Position numbers and translations under genes: made by a program. Under the pieces are notes generated by a model that was not told where the DNA came from, made no database searches, and was given only the letters and a program-made list of their open reading frames with translations. From positions 134,648-198,647 of the forward strand of contig JAUWNJ010000001.1 in NCBI GenBank assembly GCA_030612725.1: a DNA stretch of 64,000 nucleotides, given 5' to 3'. Position 1 is the first letter of the stretch; every line of letters begins with the position of its first letter. This stretch comes from Planctomycetales bacterium (GTDB taxonomy: Bacteria > Planctomycetota > Phycisphaerae > SM23-33). Positions 4,821 to 40,786 of the stretch are shown here, piece after piece.

Positions 4821-6896
4821 CTACTGGTTCGCCTGTCGAGTATAGTTCAACAATCCGCCGGCTGCGAGAATTTCACGCTGGCGGGCGCTGAGGTTGACCC
4901 GGCAGGTGAAATTGAAATCCTTTGTGGTGTTGCGGACGGTAACGGTTTCGGCGGAACCGACAACCTCTGCGACGTTTTCGATGATGAGTTGGTCGCCGGC
5001 GTCTATACGGTCGTAATCACCGGCCTGTTCGAAGGAAAGCGGCAGGATGGCGAAGTTGACCAGGTTTGCCTGGTGGATTCGCTCGATGGTTTTGGCGATA
5101 ACGACCCGGACGCCCAGGTACATCGGACACAGGGCTGCGTGCTCGCGCGACGAACCCTGCCCGTATGAATCGCCCGCGACGATAACGCCGCACCGCCCGG
5201 CCTGTTTGACCGACGTCGCACGTTCGGCGAAGGTTGGCTCGCCCGGTTCGTTCAGCGGCGCGAAGACGTGCTTTGCGTATTCCGGCACATTCGAGCGGAG
5301 TTTCAGCAGCGTCCCTGCCGGCATGATATGGTCGGTGGTAATCTTCTCGCCGACCTTGATGACGGTAACCCCGTCGATTTTTTCCGGCAGCGGTTCTCCG
5401 GCGGGCGGTTTGACGATTGTGGGGCCTCGAATAATTTTGACCTTGGCCGATTCGTCCGGCGGCAGCGGGGGGGTAATCATACCATCGTCAATCAGGAATT
5501 TTTCGACCTGCTGGATTTGCGGATACTCCGCAGACAGTTTTCGCGGGTCGGTGATTTCGCCCGTCAGGGCAGCAGCCACGGCGACCTCCGGCGAAACGAG
5601 ATATGTCTTGTCGCCCTTCGTTCCGGAGCGTCCGGCGAAGTTGCGGTTGAACGTCCGCAGGCTCAACCGACCGTCGCCCGGCGAGAAGCCCTGCCCGATG
5701 CAAGGTCCGCAACCACATTCCAGAATCCGCGCACCGGCGGCTACCATATCGCCCAGCGAACCGTTATCGACCAGCATCTTCAGCACCTGGCGGCTGCCCG
5801 GCGCGATGCCGAGTTCCACACGCGGGTGGACCTTGCGACCCTTAAGCACGGCTGCACACAACATCAGATCGCGAAGGCTGGAATTCGTACACGAACCGAT
5901 AAGCACCTGGTCCACCTTCGTTCCGGCCAGGTCGGTTATGGTTACGACGTTTCCCGGAGACGACGGCGCAGCGGCCATGGGTACGACGTCGGATAAGTCG
6001 ATTACGACCCTGCTGAAACTTACGCTGACCATACCGTCGTCTGGTTCGGATATTTCCGCGTCGGGGCAGTGCCTGCGGATGTTCTCGATAACGGCTGCGT
6101 CCTGCTCGGCGTCGAGGCGCTTGGTTATCCGGTCGTACTCGGCGTCGGCATCGGCCGACAGTGCGGTGAACTGCTCGGTACGTTCCTGGGCGGCGAGAAA
6201 AGCCTGCGTTGCCTCGTCGGACGGGAAAACACTGGTCGTTACGCCCAATTCCGCGCCCATGTTGGTACAGGTCGCACGGGCAGGAACCGAAAGCGACGCA
6301 ACGCCTTCGCCGCAGTATTCGACCACCGCGCCGACGTTGCCGCGAGTTGTCATAATGCTCAGCAGTTTCAGAATAATGTCCTTGGGCGTAACCCAATCGC
6401 TCAATCGGCCTTGGAGTTCCACAGCCACAACGGCTGGGCTTGTCAGATAGAACGCTCCGCCTCCCATTGCCACAGATACGTCAAGCCCTCCGGCTCCGAT
6501 TGCCAGAGCGCCTATTCCCCCGGCGGTGGGCGTATGCGAGTCGCTGCCAAGGAGCGTCCTGCCCGGCGCGGCGAATCGCTCAAGATGAACCTGGTGGCAG
6601 ATACCGTTACCGGGTCGGCTGTGATACGCCCCGACTTTCGCGGCTACGGACTGGAGGTACAAATGGTCGTTGTGGTTTTCGGGTCCGAACTGGGACATGT
6701 TGTGGTCCACGTAGCTGACCGACATCTCCGTCCGGACGCGCGGTACGCCCATCGCCTCGAACAGCAGGAATGCCGTCGTACCGGTGGCGTCCTGCGTGAG
6801 TGTCTGGTCGATGCGGATACCGATTTCTTCGCCGGTCTCCAGTTCGCCGTCAACGACGTGGGCGGCGAGAATCTTTTCCGTTAGTGTGCCTTGCAT
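4821..6896 (-). CDS. Aconitase-family hydratase (691 aa, catalytic plus swivel domains fused)
   Basis: Aconitase signatures GSDSHT, ILECGCGPCIGQG and SGTKGDKTYLVSPEVAVAAALTG; C-terminal swivel-domain-like region. Confidence 0.8.
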   Translation of the reverse strand: MQGTLTEKILAAHVVDGELETGEEIGIRIDQTLTQDATGTTAFLLFEAMGVPRVRTEMSVSYVDHNMSQFGPENHNDHLYLQSVAAKVGAYHSRPGNGICHQVHLERFAAPGRTLLGSDSHTPTAGGIGALAIGAGGLDVSVAMGGGAFYLTSPAVVAVELQGRLSDWVTPKDIILKLLSIMTTRGNVGAVVEYCGEGVASLSVPARATCTNMGAELGVTTSVFPSDEATQAFLAAQERTEQFTALSADADAEYDRITKRLDAEQDAAVIENIRRHCPDAEISEPDDGMVSVSFSRVVIDLSDVVPMAAAPSSPGNVVTITDLAGTKVDQVLIGSCTNSSLRDLMLCAAVLKGRKVHPRVELGIAPGSRQVLKMLVDNGSLGDMVAAGARILECGCGPCIGQGFSPGDGRLSLRTFNRNFAGRSGTKGDKTYLVSPEVAVAAALTGEITDPRKLSAEYPQIQQVEKFLIDDGMITPPLPPDESAKVKIIRGPTIVKPPAGEPLPEKIDGVTVIKVGEKITTDHIMPAGTLLKLRSNVPEYAKHVFAPLNEPGEPTFAERATSVKQAGRCGVIVAGDSYGQGSSREHAALCPMYLGVRVVIAKTIERIHQANLVNFAILPLSFEQAGDYDRIDAGDQLIIENVAEVVGSAETVTVRNTTKDFNFTCRVNLSARQREILAAGGLLNYTRQANQ

Positions 6897-31789: not shown

Positions 31790-32060
31790 GCCTATCCAGG
31801 ATGATAATTGTTTAGTCCCGAAGGGACAAGGGATGGTAGCCGTGGGCGTCAGCCCACGGACATCGGTGATACAACAACTTCAGCCCCGGAGGGGCGCCGG
31901 AAAACTCGCTAATAGACTTCCACTCGTCATACGTTCTTTCCGACGTCCCTTCGGGACTAAATTTTTCCGGCCTTTCTCCGGGGGCTTACGCCCCCGGCTA
32001 CTGTCCTCCGGCCCTTCGGGCCTGTGATAGGTTACGGTAACCGAAAGGGCCGCCGAATGT
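31790..32060. other. Hairpin-dense non-coding region of about 270 nt: candidate structured ncRNA or REP cluster
   Basis: AGTCCCGAAGGGAC and GTCCCTTCGGGACT are mutually complementary 130 nt apart. There are also local hairpins GCCGTGGGCGTCAGCCCACGG, CCGGGGGCTTACGCCCCCGG, GGCCCTTCGGGCC and GGTTACGGTAACC (tetraloop-like UUCG/GNRA). Confidence 0.35.
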
Positions 32061-32085
32061 TCTTTCAATTGGCAATTGGCAATCA

Positions 32086-32643
32086 TTACAGCATCCCTTC
32101 CTGTTTCGCGTAATCGAACACTCCTCCGGCTGCGATGATTGGTCCGACGTCGCCGAGCGGCGATAGGTCGAATTGCTCGGAAGTTCGCAGGTTCTTCAGC
32201 ACGGCAGCGGCAGTGTCTATCTCGATCTCGTCGCCGGTGGTGAATTTTTCCACCAGGCGATTCGGCGTCTCGAACGGTACGAGGTATCCGCCGTTGACGC
32301 TGTTGCGATAGAAGATTCTCGCGTATGACTGGGCCACGACGACTGATACGCCCGCTTCGGCCAGCGCCAGCGGCGCATGCTCGCGTGACGAGCCACAGCC
32401 GAAGTTTTTACCGGCAATAACCACGGTGAATTCGCTGGCGAATTCGTCGCCGACGACAAATGGGATGTTCCCATCGGGCAGACCCGACTGCGTCGGCGGG
32501 ACGCCGATGAGGGCGTACTTTCCGAAATACCTGCGTTCGTCCGCGTCGGCGGGGTTGTAGGAAAGATACTCGGCTGGGATTATCTGGTCGGTGTCGATGT
32601 TGTCGCCGAGAACAAACACCTTTCCGCGAATGACATTTTCCAT
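32086..32643 (-). CDS. leuD: 3-isopropylmalate dehydratase small subunit (LeuD-like, short type)
   Basis: IDTDQIIP, GCGSSREHAP, YARIFYRN; no adjacent leuC. Confidence 0.7.
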   Translation of the reverse strand: MENVIRGKVFVLGDNIDTDQIIPAEYLSYNPADADERRYFGKYALIGVPPTQSGLPDGNIPFVVGDEFASEFTVVIAGKNFGCGSSREHAPLALAEAGVSVVVAQSYARIFYRNSVNGGYLVPFETPNRLVEKFTTGDEIEIDTAAAVLKNLRTSEQFDLSPLGDVGPIIAAGGVFDYAKQEGML

Positions 32644-32700
32644 ATTTTTATCCTTTCGATGGTTCGCAGGTATTCTATCGCATGGTGCAGTGTTCCGAAA

Positions 32701-32770
32701 GGTTAGAGGTTAGAGGTTAGGTTCCGCGATAGTGAGCGGTTGTCTGTTTTCTCACCTCTCACCTCTCACC
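32701..32770. repeat. (GGTTAGA)x3 followed by (TCTCACC)x3: imperfect inverted tandem heptamers
   Basis: GGTTAGAGGTTAGAGGTTAGG ...34 nt... TCTCACCTCTCACCTCTCACC. The arms can pair 8 of 9 positions. Further on, the GGAGGGAGACCT motif is duplicated (32795-32806 and 32845-32856). Confidence 0.5.
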
Positions 32771-33061
32771 TTAAAAAAAGGGCGACACCCAGGCGGAGGG
32801 AGACCTGAGAATCGCCCCTACTTGCCGCAACCCTTGGTGCAGGTGGAGGGAGACCTACACCTTAAGTGGGTGCGGCGGACATTCGCGACAATAACGCCTA
32901 TCCGATTTTTCCGATTATTACATTACTACGTTATTCTTCGACAAAACCGAAGAAAATTCTTGAGAATTTTTTTCGCCTCGCGTACCTTTCCCATCAACTT
33001 TAACGATTTTGCCGGTTTATAGTTCTGATCTTCAGCCTGTTTTTTGTTCGTTCACTCGCTA

Positions 33062-36000
33062 TCAACTGCATCCCAACGATGCGCCACAGTTAAAGCATTT
33101 ATAACAGTTCCCGTTTCGTACCGTAATCGCTCCGCATACGTCGCATGGCGGGGCGTCCTCCTGGAAATGTGAGAACTGCTGATCGATACGATTGATGGTA
33201 CGCACTGCCTTCATTTTCTCAAGCCCAGCCGCTGTAAGATCGTCCGGATTGTGGTCGTTTTCGCCGTTTCCGCCGTCACCACCTGTAAGTAAATCGGCGC
33301 CGGGGGCCGGTACATCCTTGCTGCCGGTCCGGCCGGCGCCTCGCATCCCGGGGGCTGAATCATCCTTGCTGCCACCCGCAGAAACCGGAACTGTTGACCC
33401 GCCGCGACCTGCCGTGCGACCCGTCGCGGTAGTCATACCGGTTTGGTTCAAAAAATTCATGTCCAACCAGCGGAATATATAATCAACGATACTCTTGGCG
33501 AACGGGATGTCCGGATTTGCGGTCATTCCGCCCGGTTCGAAACGCTGGTGCGAGAATTTTCTCGTCAAAGCGTCCAGCGGGACGCCGTACTGGAGGCACA
33601 GGCTGATTGCCGTTGCGAATGCGTCCATCATTCCGCCGACGGTCGAACCTTCCTTGGCCATTGTGATGAACACCTCGCCTGGAACACCGTCGTCGTGCAG
33701 TCCGACGGTTATGTACCCCTCGTGCCCGCCGACCTCGAACTTATGAGTCAGCGACTGGCGAGTCGCCGGAAGACGACGCCGGCGGGGGAGCGGCTTGGAC
33801 GAAGAAGTTTCGACTTTGGTTTTTTCAGGCTCCTCGACCTCTTCGTCGTCTTTTTTCAGGTTCAAAGGTTGGGAAACCTTTGAACCGTCGCGATAGATAG
33901 CAACGGCTTTGAGTCCCATCTTCCATCCGCTGATGAAAGCGTCACGAATATCATCGACGGTCGAATCTTTGGGCATGTTGACGGTCTTTGAGATCGCCCC
34001 GGACAGGAAAGGCTGGACCGCCGCCATCATTCGCAGGTGCCCGGTGTAGTGGATGGATCGGTTGCCGTTGACCGGCTTGAAGGCGCAATCGAATATCGCC
34101 AGATGCTTTTCATTCATATCGGGCGCCCCTTCGATTGTGTCGTTTTCTTCGATGTGCTGGAGTATCCGCCCGATCTGCTCCTTACTGTACTCAAGCCTCT
34201 CCAGCGCCAGCGGGACGGTCTGGTTGACGAGTTTGAACATTCCCCCACCGGCCAGTATCTTATACTTCACCAGCGCGATGTCAGGCTCAACACCGGTAGT
34301 GTCGCAGTCCATCAGGAACCCGATCGTACCGGTCGGCGCAAGCAATGTAGCCTGTGCGTTTCGGTATCCGCTGGTCAGACCGGCTGCGATTGCTTCGTCC
34401 CAACCGGTGCGGGCAGCGTCGATCATCTCGGTCGGGCAGGCCGAGCGGTCTATGTCCTCGACTGCCTGACGGTGCATCCGCATCACGTTAATCATCGCTC
34501 GTCGGTTAGGGGCGAACTCCGGGAACGGACCGATCTGACTGGCGAGTTCGGCGCTGGTTGCGTATGCTTCTGCCGTCATTATCGCCGTTATGGCGGCGGC
34601 TACGGCGCGTCCGGGATCGCTGTCGTATGCCCATCCAAGACTCATAATCAGCGCGCCGAGGTTCGCATAACCAAGCCCCAGCGGGCGGAACTCGTGACTG
34701 TTGCGGCAAATCTTCTCCGTCGGATAACTGGCGTGATCTATTATCGTCTCCTGGGCGATAATGAATATCCTCGCGGCGCGACGGAAACCGTCTATATCAA
34801 ACGAACCGTCCGCCTGGCGGAACTTCATCAGGTTGATACTCGCAAGGTTGCACGCAGAATCGTCAAGGAACATATACTCGCTGCACGGGTTGGAGGCGTT
34901 TATCCGACCGCTGACCGGGCAGGTGTGCCAATCGTTAATTGTCGTGTCGTACTGCACGCCCGGATCGCCGCAGAGATGGCAACTCGAAGCCATTTTTTTG
35001 AGCAACTCGGCTGCACGATACCGACCTGTTACCTTCTCGGGATCAGTAACAGCGTGCGTGCACCATTCCCGGTCGTTCTGGGCGGCCTGGAGAAAATCCT
35101 CCGTCAATCGAATCGACAGATTGGAGTTCTGGTACATCACCGTCCCGTAGGCTTCGCCGTTGTAATCGCCGTCGTAACCGGCGTCTATAAGCGCCCAGGC
35201 CTTCTTTTCCTCTTTGGCTTTGCACTCGATAAATTCGAGGATGTCCGGATGGTCGCATCTTAGCGATTGCATCTTGGCGGCCCGGCGGGTCTTACCACCG
35301 GACTTGACGACGGCGGCTATCTGGTCGAAGACGCGCATGAAACTCAACGGACCGGAAGGAATCCCGCCGCCGGAAAGTTTCTCCTTGCTCGACCGAAGCG
35401 TCGAGAGGTCCGTTCCCGTCCCGGAACCATACTTGAAGAGCATCGCCTCCGAAGCCGCCAGGCGCATGATGTCTTCCATCGTGTCATCGACGCTCTGGAT
35501 AAAACAGGCTGAACACTGCGGGTATTTATAACCCTGAAGCGTCTTGGCCGGCGATTTGCTCTGCTTGTCCCAATGGAAATTACCTTCCGAACCTTCCACG
35601 CCTTTGACGTGGAAAAGCCCTACGTTGAACCATACCGGGGAATTGAACGCCCCGTACTGATTCAGGCACAACCAGGACAATTCGTCATGGAAAGCATCGG
35701 CGTCGGCGTCGGAAGCGAAGACGCCGTCCTCGCGCGCCCAGTCGGCGATGGTCCGGCTGACACGGTGAATCAACTCCCGCACCGATTTTTCGCGCTCCGG
35801 CGTATCCTGCTCGCCGAAGAAATATTTACTGACGACGACGTTTGTAGCCAATTGGCTCCACTGTTCGGGAACCTCCACGTCGTTCTGTTCGAAGATAACT
35901 TCTCCGTTTTCGTCTTTGATGGAGGCAGAGCGTTTCTCCCAGGTTATCTGTTCGAAGGGATCGACCCCTTCGGGGCAGAAATGCCTTTCCACCCGAAGCC

Positions 36001-36079
36001 CGTCCGGCGCATCCCTGATTGCCTCTGTCTCGCCAACACCGTCCTGATCCGTCAGTACCGAAGAAGAATGAACTGTCAT
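33062..36079 (-). CDS. nrdJ: Class II (adenosylcobalamin-dependent) ribonucleotide reductase
   Basis: About 1000 aa; ten-stranded barrel motifs (NPCSE...); C-terminal CDVCG...CYKCFNCG zinc ribbon. Confidence 0.85.
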   Translation of the reverse strand: MTVHSSSVLTDQDGVGETEAIRDAPDGLRVERHFCPEGVDPFEQITWEKRSASIKDENGEVIFEQNDVEVPEQWSQLATNVVVSKYFFGEQDTPEREKSVRELIHRVSRTIADWAREDGVFASDADADAFHDELSWLCLNQYGAFNSPVWFNVGLFHVKGVEGSEGNFHWDKQSKSPAKTLQGYKYPQCSACFIQSVDDTMEDIMRLAASEAMLFKYGSGTGTDLSTLRSSKEKLSGGGIPSGPLSFMRVFDQIAAVVKSGGKTRRAAKMQSLRCDHPDILEFIECKAKEEKKAWALIDAGYDGDYNGEAYGTVMYQNSNLSIRLTEDFLQAAQNDREWCTHAVTDPEKVTGRYRAAELLKKMASSCHLCGDPGVQYDTTINDWHTCPVSGRINASNPCSEYMFLDDSACNLASINLMKFRQADGSFDIDGFRRAARIFIIAQETIIDHASYPTEKICRNSHEFRPLGLGYANLGALIMSLGWAYDSDPGRAVAAAITAIMTAEAYATSAELASQIGPFPEFAPNRRAMINVMRMHRQAVEDIDRSACPTEMIDAARTGWDEAIAAGLTSGYRNAQATLLAPTGTIGFLMDCDTTGVEPDIALVKYKILAGGGMFKLVNQTVPLALERLEYSKEQIGRILQHIEENDTIEGAPDMNEKHLAIFDCAFKPVNGNRSIHYTGHLRMMAAVQPFLSGAISKTVNMPKDSTVDDIRDAFISGWKMGLKAVAIYRDGSKVSQPLNLKKDDEEVEEPEKTKVETSSSKPLPRRRRLPATRQSLTHKFEVGGHEGYITVGLHDDGVPGEVFITMAKEGSTVGGMMDAFATAISLCLQYGVPLDALTRKFSHQRFEPGGMTANPDIPFAKSIVDYIFRWLDMNFLNQTGMTTATGRTAGRGGSTVPVSAGGSKDDSAPGMRGAGRTGSKDVPAPGADLLTGGDGGNGENDHNPDDLTAAGLEKMKAVRTINRIDQQFSHFQEDAPPCDVCGAITVRNGNCYKCFNCGASLGCS

Positions 36080-36287
36080 CAGATACCTCTTGCTACTTTG
36101 TTCTAATAAGAATGAATAAAACGATTAATTCGACGAAACAACTCTGACCTGATAAAGATTCGAATCCCACCGCCGCCATACGGGACGCTTTTTCACCGCG
36201 GACTAACCAAGTCCAAACCCCGTGAGAATTACTACCCGCCGAGGATTTGGGAACAGAATCGACAAAGAGCTACGCGTTACCACACTG

Positions 36288-36340
36288 TCCCGCAATCATC
36301 AAGCATAACCCTATATGTTGAGGTGGTCAAGCAATATTTA
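36288..36340. promoter_or_regulatory. Pair of NrdR-box-like AT palindromes about 210-260 nt upstream of nrdJ
   Basis: CCCTATATGTTG and CAAAATATAGTGC have centres about 31-35 bp apart, resembling tandem NrdR operators (acaCTATATaTaGtgt). Confidence 0.3.
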
Positions 36341-36756
36341 ACCAAAATATAGTGCTTTTTTATAAGTGTCGTTCTCTAAAGGGATTCCCTTCAATAAAAA
36401 ATTTGCCCAACAGGAATTAACACCCCCGAATTACTGTTTTTACCGAGATTGATACCATATGGTGGGTGCAATGCGCTCGGCAGGCACAAATTGTGGAAAT
36501 CCTGTTGGAAGGTGTTGGTAATTTTCCTGTTATGAGGTGATACCGCGTACGATAAGTTAATGCGCCCGTCTGAGATAAACGAGTCGCGATTGCAAGGGAG
36601 CGGTCATTAAGACTTTCGCATTGGTCTGACCGCTCGCTTGCGGTCGCGGCTGGTAAGATGCTCCTGCACGATGAGCGCATTATTTTTCGTACGTGGTATC
36701 TCTCGCCAGGCGATCAAAAAACTTTCACTTCAACTTGACTTACTGTCGAGTCGATG

Positions 36757-36777
36757 TTATTATGAACGCAGGTTCAT
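36757..36777. promoter_or_regulatory. Perfect 9-4-9 palindrome 13 nt upstream of the DUF134 start codon; candidate autoregulatory operator
   Basis: GTTATGAAC-GCAG-GTTCATAAC. Confidence 0.5.
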
Positions 36778-36789
36778 AACGAGATAATT

Positions 36790-37170
36790 ATGCCCAGACC
36801 CAGATTACAACGGATAGTATCGGCTCAACCGGTCGTTACGGTTTATAAGCCGGCCGGCGTACCCGCCGGCTCTCTTGAGTGGGTCAATCTTACACTTGAT
36901 GAGTTCGAGGCGATCAGATTGATTGATGGCGAGGGTTTGGACCAGGAATCCGCTGCGGGACAAATGGGCATTTCCCGCCCGACGGTAACGCGGATATTGG
37001 CTTCTGCCCGGGGTAAAATTGCCCGGTTCCTCACGCACGGTCATGCTCTTCTGATTCAGGGCGGCCCGGTTATTTCCCCTCTTCCCGGGCGCGGACCTGG
37101 AAGAGGTGGGGGGTTGGGTCGTGGTCGCGGCGGACGCGGTGGACGCGGAAGAGGAAGAATGGGAATATGA
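36790..37170 (+). CDS. DUF134 (UPF0251) predicted DNA-binding protein with a C-terminal RGG/Gly-Arg tail
   Basis: MPRPRLQRIVSAQP...YKPAGVP...LTLDEFEAIRLIDGEGLDQESAAGQMGISRPTVTRILASARGKIA matches the DUF134 core; tail GRGPGRGGGLGRGRGGRGGRGRGRMGI. Confidence 0.6.
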   Translation: MPRPRLQRIVSAQPVVTVYKPAGVPAGSLEWVNLTLDEFEAIRLIDGEGLDQESAAGQMGISRPTVTRILASARGKIARFLTHGHALLIQGGPVISPLPGRGPGRGGGLGRGRGGRGGRGRGRMGI

Positions 37171-38057
37171 AAACGTTTTTCGATTGCATTCCGTGTTTTG
37201 TACACCAGTCGCTGGACTCGGTTCGGATGACGACGACTGACGAGGCGGTCCACGAGCGGCTGCTGCGCGAGGTACTGCGAACCCTCGCCGAGATGGACAT
37301 GCGCCAGTCGCCGCCGGCAATGGCCAAACGCATCCACCGAATTATTCGGGAGATGACAGGCCAAGCCGATCCGTACCACGACGCCAAGGAGCGATTCAAT
37401 CGGTTGGCAATGGATATTTATCCGGAACTCGCCGCGCAGGTCGAGCGTTCAGCGAATCCGCTCGAAACGGCTGTTCGTCTGGCGATCGCCGGTAATGTCA
37501 TAGATATGGGCGTGAACCATAACCTGAGCGACGAACATGTCCACGAGGGTATCGACCATGCCCTGGACGCGCCGTTTGAGGCCGACATTGCCGCATTTGG
37601 CGAAGAGATTTCGAACGCGGCAAATATCCTCTATCTCGCCGACAACGCGGGCGAGATCGTCTTTGACCAACTGCTGATAAAGCAGTTGTTGGCCGAGAAG
37701 GTAACGGTCGCGGTCAAAGGTTCGCCAATCATAAACGACGCCACAATGGAAGACGCCGAAACGACCGGCCTGACCAAACTGGTAAAAGTTATCGATAACG
37801 GTTCGGACGCGCCCGGCACGATTCTTGAAGATTGCAGCGACGATTTTCGACGGCGTTTCGACGAAGCGGACCTGGTCATCGCCAAGGGTCAGGGCAACTA
37901 CGAGACGCTCAATGAGGTCGGAAGGGACATTTTTTTCATTCTCAAGGCCAAATGTCCGGTAATCGCCAGAGATATTGGTTGCCATGTCGGCAGCCTGGTT
38001 TTGCGTCGGTCCCGGTCAACAATAATGAAAGAAGGTGATAGTCATGCCAAGAGGTAA
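37167..38057 (+). CDS. DUF89-family protein (ARMT1-like metal-dependent damage-control phosphatase fold)
   Basis: N-terminal CIPCFVHQ; RLAIAGNVIDMG; GSPIINDAT; strong resemblance to archaeal stand-alone DUF89 proteins. Overlaps the DUF134 stop by 4 nt. Confidence 0.6.
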   Translation: MKTFFDCIPCFVHQSLDSVRMTTTDEAVHERLLREVLRTLAEMDMRQSPPAMAKRIHRIIREMTGQADPYHDAKERFNRLAMDIYPELAAQVERSANPLETAVRLAIAGNVIDMGVNHNLSDEHVHEGIDHALDAPFEADIAAFGEEISNAANILYLADNAGEIVFDQLLIKQLLAEKVTVAVKGSPIINDATMEDAETTGLTKLVKVIDNGSDAPGTILEDCSDDFRRRFDEADLVIAKGQGNYETLNEVGRDIFFILKAKCPVIARDIGCHVGSLVLRRSRSTIMKEGDSHAKR

Positions 38058-38346
38058 CGGAACAGGCCCGGCGGGTGGCGGCGGACAAGGTAGCGGACAA
38101 GGTAGCGGACAAGGTGGTAGACAAGGTGGTGGACAAGGTGGTGGACAAGGTGGCGGACAAGGTGGCGGACAAGGTGGCGGACGCGGACGAGGACAGGGAC
38201 GCGGACGAATGGGCGGACCATTTGCCGCAGGAGCAGGCGGAGATTGCGTCTGCCCGAATTGCGGGCACAAGGCCCCACATGTGGCCGGTCAACCCTGTAA
38301 TCAGCAGTCCTGCCCGAAGTGCGGTGCAACAATGGCCAGAGGCTAA
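38044..38346 (+). CDS. DUF5320-like small protein: MPRGxGTGP N-terminus, (GQGG)n repeat, C-terminal double CPxCG zinc ribbon
   Basis: MPRGNGTGPAGGGGQGSGQGSGQGGRQGGGQGGGQGGGQGGGQGGGRGRGQGRGRMGG...GDCVCPNCGHKAPHVAGQPCNQQSCPKCGATMARG. An AAGGTGA RBS sits 7 nt upstream. The start overlaps the DUF89 gene by 14 nt. Confidence 0.5.
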   Translation: MPRGNGTGPAGGGGQGSGQGSGQGGRQGGGQGGGQGGGQGGGQGGGRGRGQGRGRMGGPFAAGAGGDCVCPNCGHKAPHVAGQPCNQQSCPKCGATMARG

Positions 38347-38436
38347 CCGGACAACGCGCCTTGTATGGGGAGCAGCCTTACGAGCCGCGACCGTGAGGGA
38401 GCGGTCAGGCCGATGCGAGAGTAGGTAGACTGAGAC

Positions 38437-38462
38437 GGAGCAGAGCGGAGTCCCACCTTTTT
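38437..38462. repeat. Half-copy of the 25864-25945 palindrome family (GACGGAGCAGAGCGGAGTCCCACCTTTTT)
   Basis: Shares GGAGCA(A/G)AGCGGAGTCCCACCTTTTT with 25873-25900; followed by CCCTTTTTTCA. Confidence 0.5.
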
Positions 38463-38470
38463 CCCTTTTT

Positions 38471-39202
38471 TCATCGGTTTGCGTGTCGCCGGAATGCTGT
38501 CCCTGCCAGAAGCCAACTGACTGTGAGCATCGTCGCCAAGACCAGGATGGGTATCCAGGGAGTAGGGAACCACGATTGGCCTGTAACACCGAAGCGCAGC
38601 AACTCCACCGTATGCGTCAGCGGCGAGACCATTGCAATCGGTCTGGCCCATGCCGGAAGGGCGTCGAGAGGCATGAACACGCCGCTGATGAACAGGATCG
38701 GGAATCGGAAAAAGTTCAACAGCGTCATCGCCTCGAAGACTTCTCTCACCCGCACCGCGATGATCATGCCAAGCAGGGCGAAGGTCGCCGCTCCGGCGAG
38801 CAGGCCGACGATAAAAACCGGAAGGTGAACCATCGGCATTTTCAGCAGCACCACCAGGCCAAGCGTAAGGACCGTCGAGGTGGCTACGCCGTAGGCCGCT
38901 GCGCTGACGACCTTTCCCAGAACAATCGTCTGATGCGATACAGGCGCAAGGAGCAGACGCTGCAAAGTCCCGGACCGCTTTTCCCACGTAATGACGATGG
39001 CGGCCATTGAGGTATTACCGAACAGGAGGGTCATTCCGATGATCCCCGGCGCAACGGTAAGATAAGTGGAAGGATTCTTGACGTATATGGCAAGCATCAG
39101 GACGGCGGGAAAGAGCAGTCCCCAGGTTACCAGCGGCGGCTTGGAGTAGTAACTTTCGACGTCCTTTCGACTGATGAACAATGCGCGTGCGATTTGGATC
39201 AT
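38471..39202 (-). CDS. ABC-2 type transporter permease
   Basis: Six TM helices; ABC-2 signature region; its start overlaps the ATPase stop (4 nt). Confidence 0.75.
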   Translation of the reverse strand: MIQIARALFISRKDVESYYSKPPLVTWGLLFPAVLMLAIYVKNPSTYLTVAPGIIGMTLLFGNTSMAAIVITWEKRSGTLQRLLLAPVSHQTIVLGKVVSAAAYGVATSTVLTLGLVVLLKMPMVHLPVFIVGLLAGAATFALLGMIIAVRVREVFEAMTLLNFFRFPILFISGVFMPLDALPAWARPIAMVSPLTHTVELLRFGVTGQSWFPTPWIPILVLATMLTVSWLLAGTAFRRHANR

Positions 39203-40241: not shown

Positions 40242-40259
40242 CCACGCCCAATTGCCCTA

Positions 40260-40400
40260 TTTGCAGCAATCATCCTTGGGTGCGCACGGGTGTTCGGTTA
40301 CGTCGCCGTGGCATTTCCGGATCTGCTCGGGCGAGCAGTCTTCGGGTCTGCCCTTCAGGTTTTCGGGCTTTTCGCAACAGGGTTTGTTTTCTTCGCACAT
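40260..40400 (-). CDS. 47-aa Cys/His-rich putative metal-binding peptide, absent from the ORF track; overlaps the ArsR 3' end in another frame
   Basis: MCEENKPCCEKPENLKGRPEDCSPEQIRKCHGDVTEHPCAPKDDCCK (8 Cys, 2 His), TAG stop at 40257-40259. Its ATG lies inside the ...CCATGTGCG... of the ArsR C-terminus, a 45-nt overlap. Confidence 0.45.
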
Positions 40401-40786
40401 GGTTTTATCCTTTCAGAAATTTTCTGTTGACACTGCTTTATGTCGGCGGTGCCAGGTTCTAAAAAACGGTCTGTTACATTTTTCCATTTGGCGATGGTTT
40501 TGTTGTTCAGACGATAGTGAACGTAGTAGCCGTGTTTTTCGTCTGTAACCAGTCCGGCGTCGCGGAGTATTCGCAGGTGTTGCGAGACGGCCCCGGCCGT
40601 TACGCCAAGCTTCGCCGACATCGCCCCGACACACAATGCCCGACCCTTGAGCAACTCAATAATCCGCACTCGTGTATCCACGGACAGGACTTTGCAGATT
40701 CTGGCGAGTTCACGTGCATCGCTCACAGTTTGGCCATCCTTTTTAGTATCCGCTAAAAAACTAATACAAAATCCAGGGAATGTCAA
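40355..40786 (-). CDS. ArsR/SmtB-family metalloregulator
   Basis: Winged-helix core LARICKVLSVDTRVRIIELLKGRALCVGAMSAKLGVTAGAVSQHLRILRDAGLV with the CVG metal-site Cys. Start uncertain. Confidence 0.7.
   Translation of the reverse strand: MTFPGFCISFLADTKKDGQTVSDARELARICKVLSVDTRVRIIELLKGRALCVGAMSAKLGVTAGAVSQHLRILRDAGLVTDEKHGYYVHYRLNNKTIAKWKNVTDRFLEPGTADIKQCQQKISERIKPCAKKTNPVAKSPKT

Follow-up and report, generated by a model that had tools for sequence, protein, structure and literature searches.

A DUF134-DUF89-ZnR operon of a Planctomycetales bacterium and its conserved palindromic candidate operator

We analyzed a stretch of 64,000 nucleotides (nt) from a Planctomycetales bacterium (contig JAUWNJ010000001.1, positions 134,648 to 198,647; hereafter the window, with coordinates counted from its first nucleotide), in which three genes coding for a DUF134 protein, a DUF89 protein and a small protein with a zinc-ribbon-like module, here called ZnR, follow a palindrome of 20 base pairs (bp) that we refer to as the DUF134 box. 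The closest known relative of this arrangement is a gene neighborhood of anaerobes composed of DUF134 (PF02001/UPF0251), DUF5320 (PF17253), a NifX-like protein (PF02579) and a MinD/ParA ATPase with a ferredoxin insert, which is annotated in databases and experimentally uncharacterized. A search of an 8-million-paper library for DUF134, DUF5320 and UPF0251 as whole words retrieved no function, DNA motif or regulon assigned to them. The window resembles this neighborhood in that it encodes a clear DUF134 member, and its nearest relatives (loci L082/L083 and L162-L165) head such clusters behind the same box; it differs in that it retains only DUF134, DUF89 and ZnR.

Among characterized proteins, IssA of Pyrococcus furiosus, which stores thioferrate, joins a NifX-like domain to a cationic tail that is disordered, abounds in Gly, Arg and aromatics, and is proposed to bind the anionic thioferrate (PMC5524996). 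In the anaerobe cluster, NifX-like proteins are accompanied by DUF5320 and ZnR, which are separate proteins of Gly/Arg(/aromatic)-rich composition, and a chemistry similar to that of the IssA tail is found in the middle of DUF5320 (Gly/Arg/aromatic) and in the linkers of ZnR and DUF134 (Gly/Arg(/Gln)). In contrast to IssA, the window operon has no NifX-like domain and the ZnR and DUF134 tails contain no aromatics, the resemblance being one of composition and gene context only. As regards DUF89, PMC9062747 assigns the Pyrococcus and Archaeoglobus structures to subfamily I and credits Huang et al. (2016) with the finding that recombinant DUF89 protein from Pyrococcus acts as a metal-dependent phosphatase; the study by Huang et al. 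is cited here through PMC9062747 and PMC8669784. The window protein shares with these structures (2G8L, 2FFJ) a full-length match and the sequence motifs, and differs in scoring below the equivalog cutoffs of the family. Finally, an autorepressed operon with a helix-turn-helix (HTH) regulator is, as a kind of system, ordinary. DUF134 shares with the structurally nearest proteins, ECF sigma region 4 and Bacillus subtilis DeoR (7BHY), a three-helix core, and with autoregulated HTH repressors a symmetric operator over the -10 hexamer; it differs in its own N-terminal MPRPR strand region and in its Arg/Gly- or Cys-rich tails.

The operon and its conserved box

The three open reading frames (ORFs) lie on the plus strand: the DUF134/UPF0251 gene (36790-37170; 126 amino acids (aa), a predicted HTH repressor with no Cys), the ARMT1-like DUF89 gene (37167-38057; 296 aa, a predicted metal-dependent phosphatase of the subfamily-I type) and the ZnR gene (38044-38346; 100 aa, rich in Gly, Arg and Gln, beginning with MPRGNGTGP and carrying a zinc-ribbon-like Cys6-His module at its C-terminus). 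DUF134 and DUF89 overlap by 4 nt, DUF89 and ZnR by 14 nt. Ahead of them, a sigma-70-type promoter (36735-36763, plus strand) consists of TTGACT, a 17-nt spacer and TATTAT (the -10 hexamer, 36758-36763) with a TG ahead of the -10; it matches the consensus at 10 of 12 positions and was the best promoter-like site within 36000-38600. Because stop and start codons overlap, only one strong promoter is present and the gene order is kept in three relatives (L075, L162 and L163), DUF134, DUF89 and ZnR form one translationally coupled operon with a single strong promoter, in agreement with a preliminary description of this DNA that had proposed a three-gene operon with the same overlaps. The promoter block of L075 was near-identical to that of the window and the TTGAC-17-TATTAT layout was retained in L162-L165; the sequence farther upstream was unrelated between the window and its relatives.

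The DUF134 box (36760-36779), TTATGAAC-gcag-GTTCATAA, is a perfect palindrome of the 8-4-8 type. It covers the predicted transcription start and ends 10 nt ahead of the DUF134 ATG, and its left arm takes in the final 4 nt of the -10 hexamer. The preliminary description had given the palindrome a 9-4-9 geometry and placed it 13 nt before the ATG; the former reading is wrong because the base preceding the left arm is A, not G, and the latter distance has been corrected by our measurement. Judged from the window alone, the significance of the palindrome is modest: the 64 kilobases (kb) contain 22 perfect palindromes whose arms measure 8 nt or more and whose loops span 0-8 nt, which gives about a 2% chance per given 60 nt. 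A second box with up to 3 mismatches was found nowhere in the window, the region before the neighboring nrdJ gene included. The box owes its significance to conservation across loci, not to the statistics of the window.

We compared 80 DUF134 loci from metagenomes, whose DUF134 proteins are 51-78% identical to that of the window. A box, taken as a match at 12 or more of the 16 arm positions of TTATGAAC-N4-GTTCATAA within 120 nt upstream of DUF134, preceded 46 of these 80 independent loci, versus about 1.3% of random 123-nt windows. The 36 unique sites gave the consensus TTATGARCATATGYTCATAA, or TTATGARC-N4-GYTCATAA in its general form. When about 1.5 megabases (Mb) of sequence were searched for matches at 14 or more of the 16 positions, 53 were observed, compared to a mean of 1.25 in locally shuffled sequence. 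The 49 matches that were listed all stood ahead of a DUF134 gene, of a small or MinD gene preceding DUF134 (the small gene being DUF5320-like; L035, L116/L121 and L124), or of a DUF89-led operon (L052, L054, L065 and L068), the operons of L052 and L065 ending in DUF134. No gene other than DUF134 is shared by all box-bearing operons, and since a box was also present at L164, where no ZnR gene was called, DUF134 is its constant partner.

Within the clade of the window (L075, L082/L083 and L162-L165), both arms and the promoter layout were kept, and among close relatives the central 4 nt varied (GCAG, GTAG, ATAC) around invariant arms. Among the more distant loci, L064 carried ATAATGAAC-gtgt-GTTCATAAT behind TTGACG-17-TATAAT and L037 had two tandem sites; a nanoarchaeal fusion gene was preceded by TTATGCAT-tatt-ATGCATAA. 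Many sites were asymmetric without compensation, for instance GAAC/GGAC. Half-site positions 6-7 showed a weak trend, confounded by phylogeny, to vary with the first residues of the recognition helix (xTFS with GAAC or GGAC; xTFA and QTFG with GAGC).

The distance between a -35-like hexamer and the box fell into three discrete classes of 1-2, 8-9 and 19 nt, and in each of them the box overlapped a -10-like hexamer. At most loci the left arm sat between -35 and -10 and is therefore not transcribed. Because the site covers the -10/start region in three different spacing classes, its geometry appears to be that of a repressor site. The box is thus a two-fold symmetric site over the -10/start of the regulator's own promoter, and it is conserved before orthologous regulators of unrelated genomes. 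Autoregulation by DUF134, as suggested by the preliminary description, finds no evidence in the window alone and is supported by the comparison, namely by the 46 box-bearing loci and by the excess of matches over shuffled sequence.

The encoded proteins and their gene neighborhoods

The first protein matched PF02001 with E=1.2e-23 (83.9 bits versus a cutoff of 27) over profile positions 6-94 of 98, and also gave sub-threshold matches to Sigma70_r4. It starts with MPRPRLQR and has the invariant or near-invariant columns common to 29 homologues, including MPRPR and the HTH core. In an AF2 model, the core (residues 30-90) comprised a strand, three helices and a second strand with pLDDT above 90. 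When this model was compared with the PDB by Foldseek, the top matches were domains of ECF sigma region 4 and, in its operator-bound form, the DNA-binding domain of B. subtilis DeoR (probability 1.0, rmsd of 0.6 Å over 40-49 residues, with E-values of only 0.03-0.3); a PDB search with the DUF134 sequence found nothing significant, and no solved structure of DUF134 exists. The Arg/Gly (RGG) tail noticed previously is present as residues 98-126 (37081-37167, plus strand), which are predicted to be disordered (pLDDT below 50) and end in GRGRGRMGI. Neither the window protein nor its relatives L082/L083 contain any Cys, whereas most other DUF134 subclasses carry Cys motifs or a zinc ribbon of their own. 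Among the subclasses seen in L082-L161, one had an N-terminal CC plus a C-terminal RRCC(R/E)LHD, another PCGCGQR following an internal MPGRDGTGP motif, another an FKCxxCxHxW...CPxCK zinc ribbon, another a fused ZnR, and another, the window clade, was Cys-free with an Arg/Gly tail. A further subclass, starting with MPRPRHCRRV, was found at the distal end of operons and had no box of its own.

The second protein matched PF01937 (ARMT1-like/DUF89) with E=3.3e-75 (253.6 bits versus a cutoff of 25), so that both family assignments of the preliminary description were borne out by the HMM searches. The closest PDB structures, matched over the full length, were 2FFJ from Archaeoglobus fulgidus (E=4e-49) and PH1575 from Pyrococcus horikoshii (2G8L, E=5e-47). 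Alignment with them showed conservation of CxxC, which here is the CIPC already noted at the N-terminus (residues 7-10), of a third Cys (AKC), and of DNAGE, INDAT and KGQGNYE, with candidate metal-site motifs among them. Scores against two NCBIfam models (206.9 bits versus a cutoff of 440 for NF040824, and 191.4 bits versus 500 for NF041594) identify the protein as a member of the family and not as an equivalog of the named enzymes. By homology, it is probably a metal-dependent phosphatase of the subfamily-I type.

The third protein had been described as DUF5320, an identity that did not survive the HMM check proposed for it: PF17253 gave no match at E≤10 with either possible start, NCBIfam gave none, and within Pfam only generic zinc-ribbon models matched, below threshold. 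Among 120 ZnR homologues listed, about 6 had a precomputed PF17253 match. By comparison, a classic DUF5320 protein with an MPRG[DN]GTGP start matched PF17253 at E=4.6e-24. ZnR shares with classic DUF5320 this start motif and a Gly/Arg-rich region, and the two lie side by side in 28 of 80 ZnR loci; they differ in that DUF5320 ends in a coiled coil and ZnR in the Cys6-His module. ZnR forms a large family of its own, for which neither Pfam nor NCBIfam holds a dedicated model and which has only the MPRGxGTGP start in common with DUF5320. An indexed search yielded 211 homologues at E≤0.01 among the candidates scored, most of them of 64-80 aa, and an exhaustive profile search gave 2,069 representatives of 50%-identity clusters at E≤1e-3, 518 of them at E≤1e-10. 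As homologues begin at MPRG, we place the start at the ATG at 38044 and not at the GTG at 38035.

The remaining features attributed to the third protein, that is, its MPRGNGTGP start, a (GQGG)n tract and a C-terminal CxCPxCG...CPKCG module, are all there. The C-terminus reads CVCPNCG...H...C...CPKCG, and residues C68, C70, C73, H79, C85, C90 and C93 are invariant, with a conserved GRMGGPFAAGPGG motif preceding them. AF2 predicted about the first 60 residues to be disordered and residues 66-100 (38239-38343, plus strand) to form a folded Cys6-His module with pLDDT of about 90. A PDB sequence search with the ZnR profile returned nothing significant. The (GQGG)n tract, in the disordered linker, is encoded by a 12-nt tandem repeat of GGCGGACAAGGT (38080-38182, plus strand; 8.6 copies, 93% matches, TRF score 164). 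An independent Logan assembly of run SRR12623518 (L001), corresponding to window positions 32050-38404, showed 0 mismatches to the window across 6,343 nt and differed only by one 12-nt gap, which leaves L001 exactly one repeat unit shorter, as expected from the length polymorphism that had been predicted for this tract. The tracts of L075 and L163 were much shorter. Such variation fits slippage in a disordered linker that tolerates changes in length, an assembly artefact being also possible. In the automatic gene calls of L001, DUF134 was missed and a wrong-frame ORF of 'VADK' repeats (window 38075-38428) was called over ZnR; small Gly-rich genes of this kind are easily lost from annotations.

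We also examined 80 genomic ZnR loci, from, among others, Planctomycetota, Chloroflexota (Anaerolineae), Geobacter and other Desulfobacterota, Lentisphaerota, Fibrobacterota, Omnitrophota, DPANN archaea and Bathyarchaeota. Near ZnR, a MinD/ParA ATPase with a ferredoxin insert and a NifX-like protein were each present in 43 loci, followed by classic DUF5320 (28), a sigma-54 activator with a PAS domain (25), DUF89 (24), radical SAM (13) and MBL-fold hydrolases (11). In 13 of its 24 loci DUF89 was directly upstream of ZnR on the same strand; DUF89, which the preliminary description did not recognize from any described module of this kind, is no oddity here but a recurrent member of the neighborhood. 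To our knowledge, DUF89 has not been described within a DUF134 or sigma-54 regulon. DUF134 was found in 15 of the 80 loci and never together with the sigma-54 activator, and therefore the two look like alternative controllers of one gene set. Of the 25 activator loci, 7 had a strict -24/-12 promoter (TGGCA-N-TTGCA) ahead of ZnR at a distance of 1.5-2.3 kb, which was 2.0-2.3 kb in six of them, the background being 0.009 per kb. In L020, L024, L047, L066, L071 and L074, for example, the activator takes the place of DUF134 beside the DUF89/DUF5320/ZnR/NifX cluster.

Gene order in the box-bearing relatives was DUF134-DUF89-ZnR in L075, DUF134-DUF89-(DUF5320-like)-ZnR-DUF5320-NifX in L163 and L162, and DUF134-NifX-DUF89-ZnR in L082/L083, with L083 continuing into DUF5320 and two MinDFer4 genes. 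Since relatives carry additional NifX, DUF5320 and MinD-ferredoxin genes, we consider the trio of the window a reduced variant of a recurrent regulon. ZnR also occurs within larger proteins. In Woese-, Pace-, Nano- and Heimdallarchaeota, in CPR bacteria and in one bacterial clade (L098-L110), DUF134 carries a fused ZnR at its C-terminus; in other proteins, 3-5 ZnR modules in tandem separate two PDZ domains from 1-3 NifX-like (PF02579) domains. Proteins of this kind retrieved by the profile search (P0241, P0244, P0246, P0249, P0254, P0293 and P0251) are 600-1430 aa long, begin with a hydrophobic segment, have tandem ZnR modules spaced by Pro/Gly/Gln-rich repeats and end in the NifX-like domains; in P0251, a rhodanese replaces the PDZ domains, giving rhodanese-(ZnR)3-NifX-like. 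We know of no earlier description of the PDZ-(ZnR)n-NifX architecture.

Proposed regulation and function

Taken as a whole, the locus is probably best explained as a compact, self-repressed operon, a reduced form of a cluster found widely among anaerobes, both bacterial and archaeal. The core of this explanation, the box as operator and autoregulation by DUF134, is in our opinion very likely. The Cys-free DUF134, with its HTH of the sigma-region-4/DeoR-like type, would bind both half-sites as a dimer and block RNA polymerase, and the operon would stay autorepressed until some signal releases DUF134. As cargo, the operon would supply a predicted DUF89 phosphatase and a small disordered Gly/Arg-rich protein with a putative metal-binding Cys6-His module, in which the 12-nt repeat would merely lengthen the linker. 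The role of these products would most likely lie in the handling of iron-sulfur (or sulfide/metal) clusters, or in the control of such handling, because regulon relatives encode NifX/IssA-like, DUF5320 and MinD-ferredoxin proteins and because ZnR is fused to DUF134, NifX-like and rhodanese domains. The iron-sulfur theme as such, suggested by the NifX-like proteins, the ferredoxin-bearing MinD, radical SAM, rhodanese, the Cys-rich modules and the precedent of IssA, is held tentatively, at somewhat less than an even chance.

Several observations weigh against the proposed explanation. The repressor role is deduced from the position of the operator and its conservation. The 80 DUF134 loci were picked by similarity (at least 51% identity), for which reason the box frequency may not extend to the whole DUF134 family, and archaeal loci carry palindromes that are related to the box but different from it. 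NifX-like (PF02579), DUF5320 and MinD-ferredoxin genes were looked for in the 64-kb window and none was found; the iron-sulfur link is therefore one of association, through relatives and fusions only. Foldseek comparison of the ZnR model with the PDB gave only generic zinc ribbons and knuckles, with E>0.6. In addition, 25 of the 80 ZnR loci pair ZnR with a sigma-54 PAS activator and have no DUF134, and hence ZnR cannot be solely a subunit of DUF134.

This last point bears on what ZnR may do. ZnR would be either the metal- or redox-sensing partner that a Cys-free DUF134 is missing, or a component that handles clusters. Taken to its end, the first option makes ZnR a detachable sensor subunit, whose Cys6-His metal or iron-sulfur site would dock on DUF134, perhaps through the shared GRGRMG-type tails, and switch its DNA binding, DUF89 being left as the only true cargo. 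DUF134-ZnR fusions in several phyla favor a sensor role, and in these fused proteins the linker before the ZnR module aligns column for column with the tail of the window DUF134, which stops (…GRGRGRMGI) exactly where the module begins; that other DUF134 subclasses have Cys motifs or zinc ribbons of their own and the window clade has none points in the same direction. The handling role is favored by the sigma-54 loci and by the NifX and rhodanese fusions. As ZnR is found with an activator in loci devoid of DUF134, and in tandem arrays fused to NifX-like, PDZ and rhodanese domains, handling or transfer fits better than a dedicated co-repressor, and we hold the sensor-subunit explanation to be rather unlikely, albeit worth considering.

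The proposed explanation can be extended to a broader scheme, to which we give a low probability, in which DUF134 proteins with Cys-rich appendages (ZnR in trans in the window) would act across anaerobes as iron-sulfur- or sulfide-status repressors of a split IssA-like storage and delivery system. NifX-like domains would hold an iron-sulfur polymer or cluster, which would be wrapped, as proposed for the IssA tail, by the positively charged Gly/Arg(/aromatic) stretches found in DUF5320, ZnR and DUF134. MinD-ferredoxin ATPases would deliver the polymer or cluster, and ZnR modules would pass on metal or sulfur, as the rhodanese-(ZnR)3-NifX fusions suggest. The operon of the window would then be the minimal sensor-plus-phosphatase core.

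A different origin of the box itself must also be weighed, namely that it is the site of another global regulator of the redox type, Rex-like or CRP/FNR-like, with DUF134 as merely one of its targets. The box variants TTGTGAAC or TTGTGCAC do resemble the Rex half-site TTGTGAA, and the gene set of the box operons looks redox-related. The consensus is TTGTGAA-N4-TTCACAA for Rex and TGTGA-N6-TCACA for CRP. In all 36 unique sites, however, TGAA and TTCA are 6 nt apart and not 4 nt as in Rex, and the form TATGA-N8-TCATA differs from that of CRP. A global regulator also fits poorly with a single box in the 64-kb window. The inspected matches in about 1.5 Mb, those of archaea and CPR bacteria included, all lie ahead of DUF134-linked operons, and the half-site positions 6-7 tend to track the DUF134 recognition helix, the weak and phylogenetically confounded trend mentioned above. 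On account of the half-site spacing and of the exclusive association of the inspected matches with DUF134, we rejected a Rex or CRP/FNR site as improbable.

Even less probable is that the Arg/Gly tails bind nucleic acid (in the manner of RGG tails, possibly G-quadruplexes or RNA) and that the operon belongs to RNA or DNA metabolism, as its proximity to nrdJ might indicate. A motif survey flagged a G-quadruplex-binding-like RG motif in the DUF134 and DUF5320 proteins of Methanosarcina mazei (PMC7565180), and the DUF134 tail weakly matches the RG tail of Sm D1. Yet the adjacency to nrdJ is confined to the closest relatives, nucleic-acid enzymes are not what is conserved among the neighbors and fusion partners, which are instead NifX-like, MinD-ferredoxin, rhodanese and radical-SAM proteins, and IssA provides a precedent for cationic Gly/Arg tails that bind an inorganic polyanion. 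Least probable of all, and rejected, is that the palindrome is no protein operator but folds within the 5' leader into an RNA (or DNA) hairpin that serves stability, attenuation or translation: an 8-bp stem with a 4-nt loop can form 10 nt before the start codon, and symmetric changes of the arms between loci would preserve it as well, but the predicted structure is weak and hardly stands out from shuffled sequence (-8 kcal/mol, z=-1.67, equaled by 12 of 200 shuffles), the left arm is untranscribed at most loci and the predicted start of the window lies inside the box, many sites have uncompensated asymmetries, and there is no Rfam match.

Surroundings and significance of the operon

The genes flanking the operon are unrelated to the cluster: on one side lie nrdJ and a gene with an aconitase C domain, on the other the genes of an ABC-2 exporter, ArsR and MgtE. 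nrdJ (33062-36079, minus strand) encodes a class II (B12-dependent) ribonucleotide reductase with a TSCPD domain, a low-complexity Gly/Ala/Asp-rich insertion and a C-terminal CxxC...CxxC zinc ribbon; no cobalamin riboswitch was found upstream. It was adjacent to DUF134 only in L001 and L075, a URO-D gene being upstream in L163. Given that the adjacency is confined to the nearest relatives, we rejected a functional link: nrdJ is an incidental neighbor. The 710 nt once described as an nrdJ leader are the intergenic distance between nrdJ and DUF134, not a demonstrated leader. An Rfam scan of 35500-39000 at E≤1 gave one sub-threshold S4-leader match and no known riboswitch or leader in this intergenic region. 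The 450 nt upstream of nrdJ (36080-36530), also devoid of an Rfam match, are about 94% identical to L075, a conservation like that of coding sequence. A promoter-like site on the minus strand (TTGACC-17-TATGCT, 36330-36302) and two imperfect palindromic boxes about 32 nt apart (about 36307-36322, CCCTATATGTTGAGG; 36341-36356, CCAAAATATAGTGC), which we take to resemble NrdR boxes, are found there; if they are real, the nrdJ leader would be about 220 nt long, not 710 nt.

Between the nrdJ region and the DUF134 promoter, a block of about 190 nt (approximately 36530-36715) is hypervariable, being unrelated in L075. In the window it holds a hairpin-forming repeat (36579-36657) with 28-nt arms that are 82% complementary, and at the equivalent place L075 (positions 5719-5809) carries a different hairpin with 36-nt arms. 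A third copy of the repeat (38377-38422), just past the operon, forms with 36612-36657 a 46-nt inverted repeat with 85% complementarity; thus, 46-nt inverted repeats bracket the three genes. The core of the repeat, AGGGAGCGGTCA, occurs 4 times in the window versus 0.37 expected, 3 of the 4 copies being around the operon. A REP- or MITE-like element, a terminator and a remnant of past mobility are possible identities of the repeat, and it is uncertain whether either copy belongs to the system. Beyond the operon, a minus-strand ORF of 47 aa (40257-40400), Cys-rich (MCEENKPCCEKPENLKGRPEDCSPEQIRKCHGDVTEHPCAPKDDCCK) and with no Pfam match, overlaps the 3' end of an ArsR-family regulator gene (40355-40786, minus strand) beside mgtE; its product may be a small metal-binding protein.

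What is new here is an operator and a regulon for an uncharacterized regulator family, a ZnR family with its fusions, and the alternative control of one gene set by DUF134 or a sigma-54 activator. DUF134/UPF0251 is a widespread family of predicted regulators in anaerobic bacteria and archaea, for which this locus supplies a conserved 20-bp operator together with a target gene set made up of NifX-like proteins, DUF5320, MinD-ferredoxin ATPases, DUF89 and a Cys6-His family of about 2,000 clusters at 50% identity, whose module is tied by fusions to NifX-like and rhodanese domains. A 'conserved hypothetical' cluster thereby becomes testable, and the version in the window, with three genes and one operator in 1.6 kb, is its simplest system. 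If the split IssA-like scheme is true, the 20-bp box would define the first regulon of a regulator family that has had no assigned function. If the iron-sulfur link is true, storage of the IssA type would extend beyond the Thermococcales and gain a regulator.

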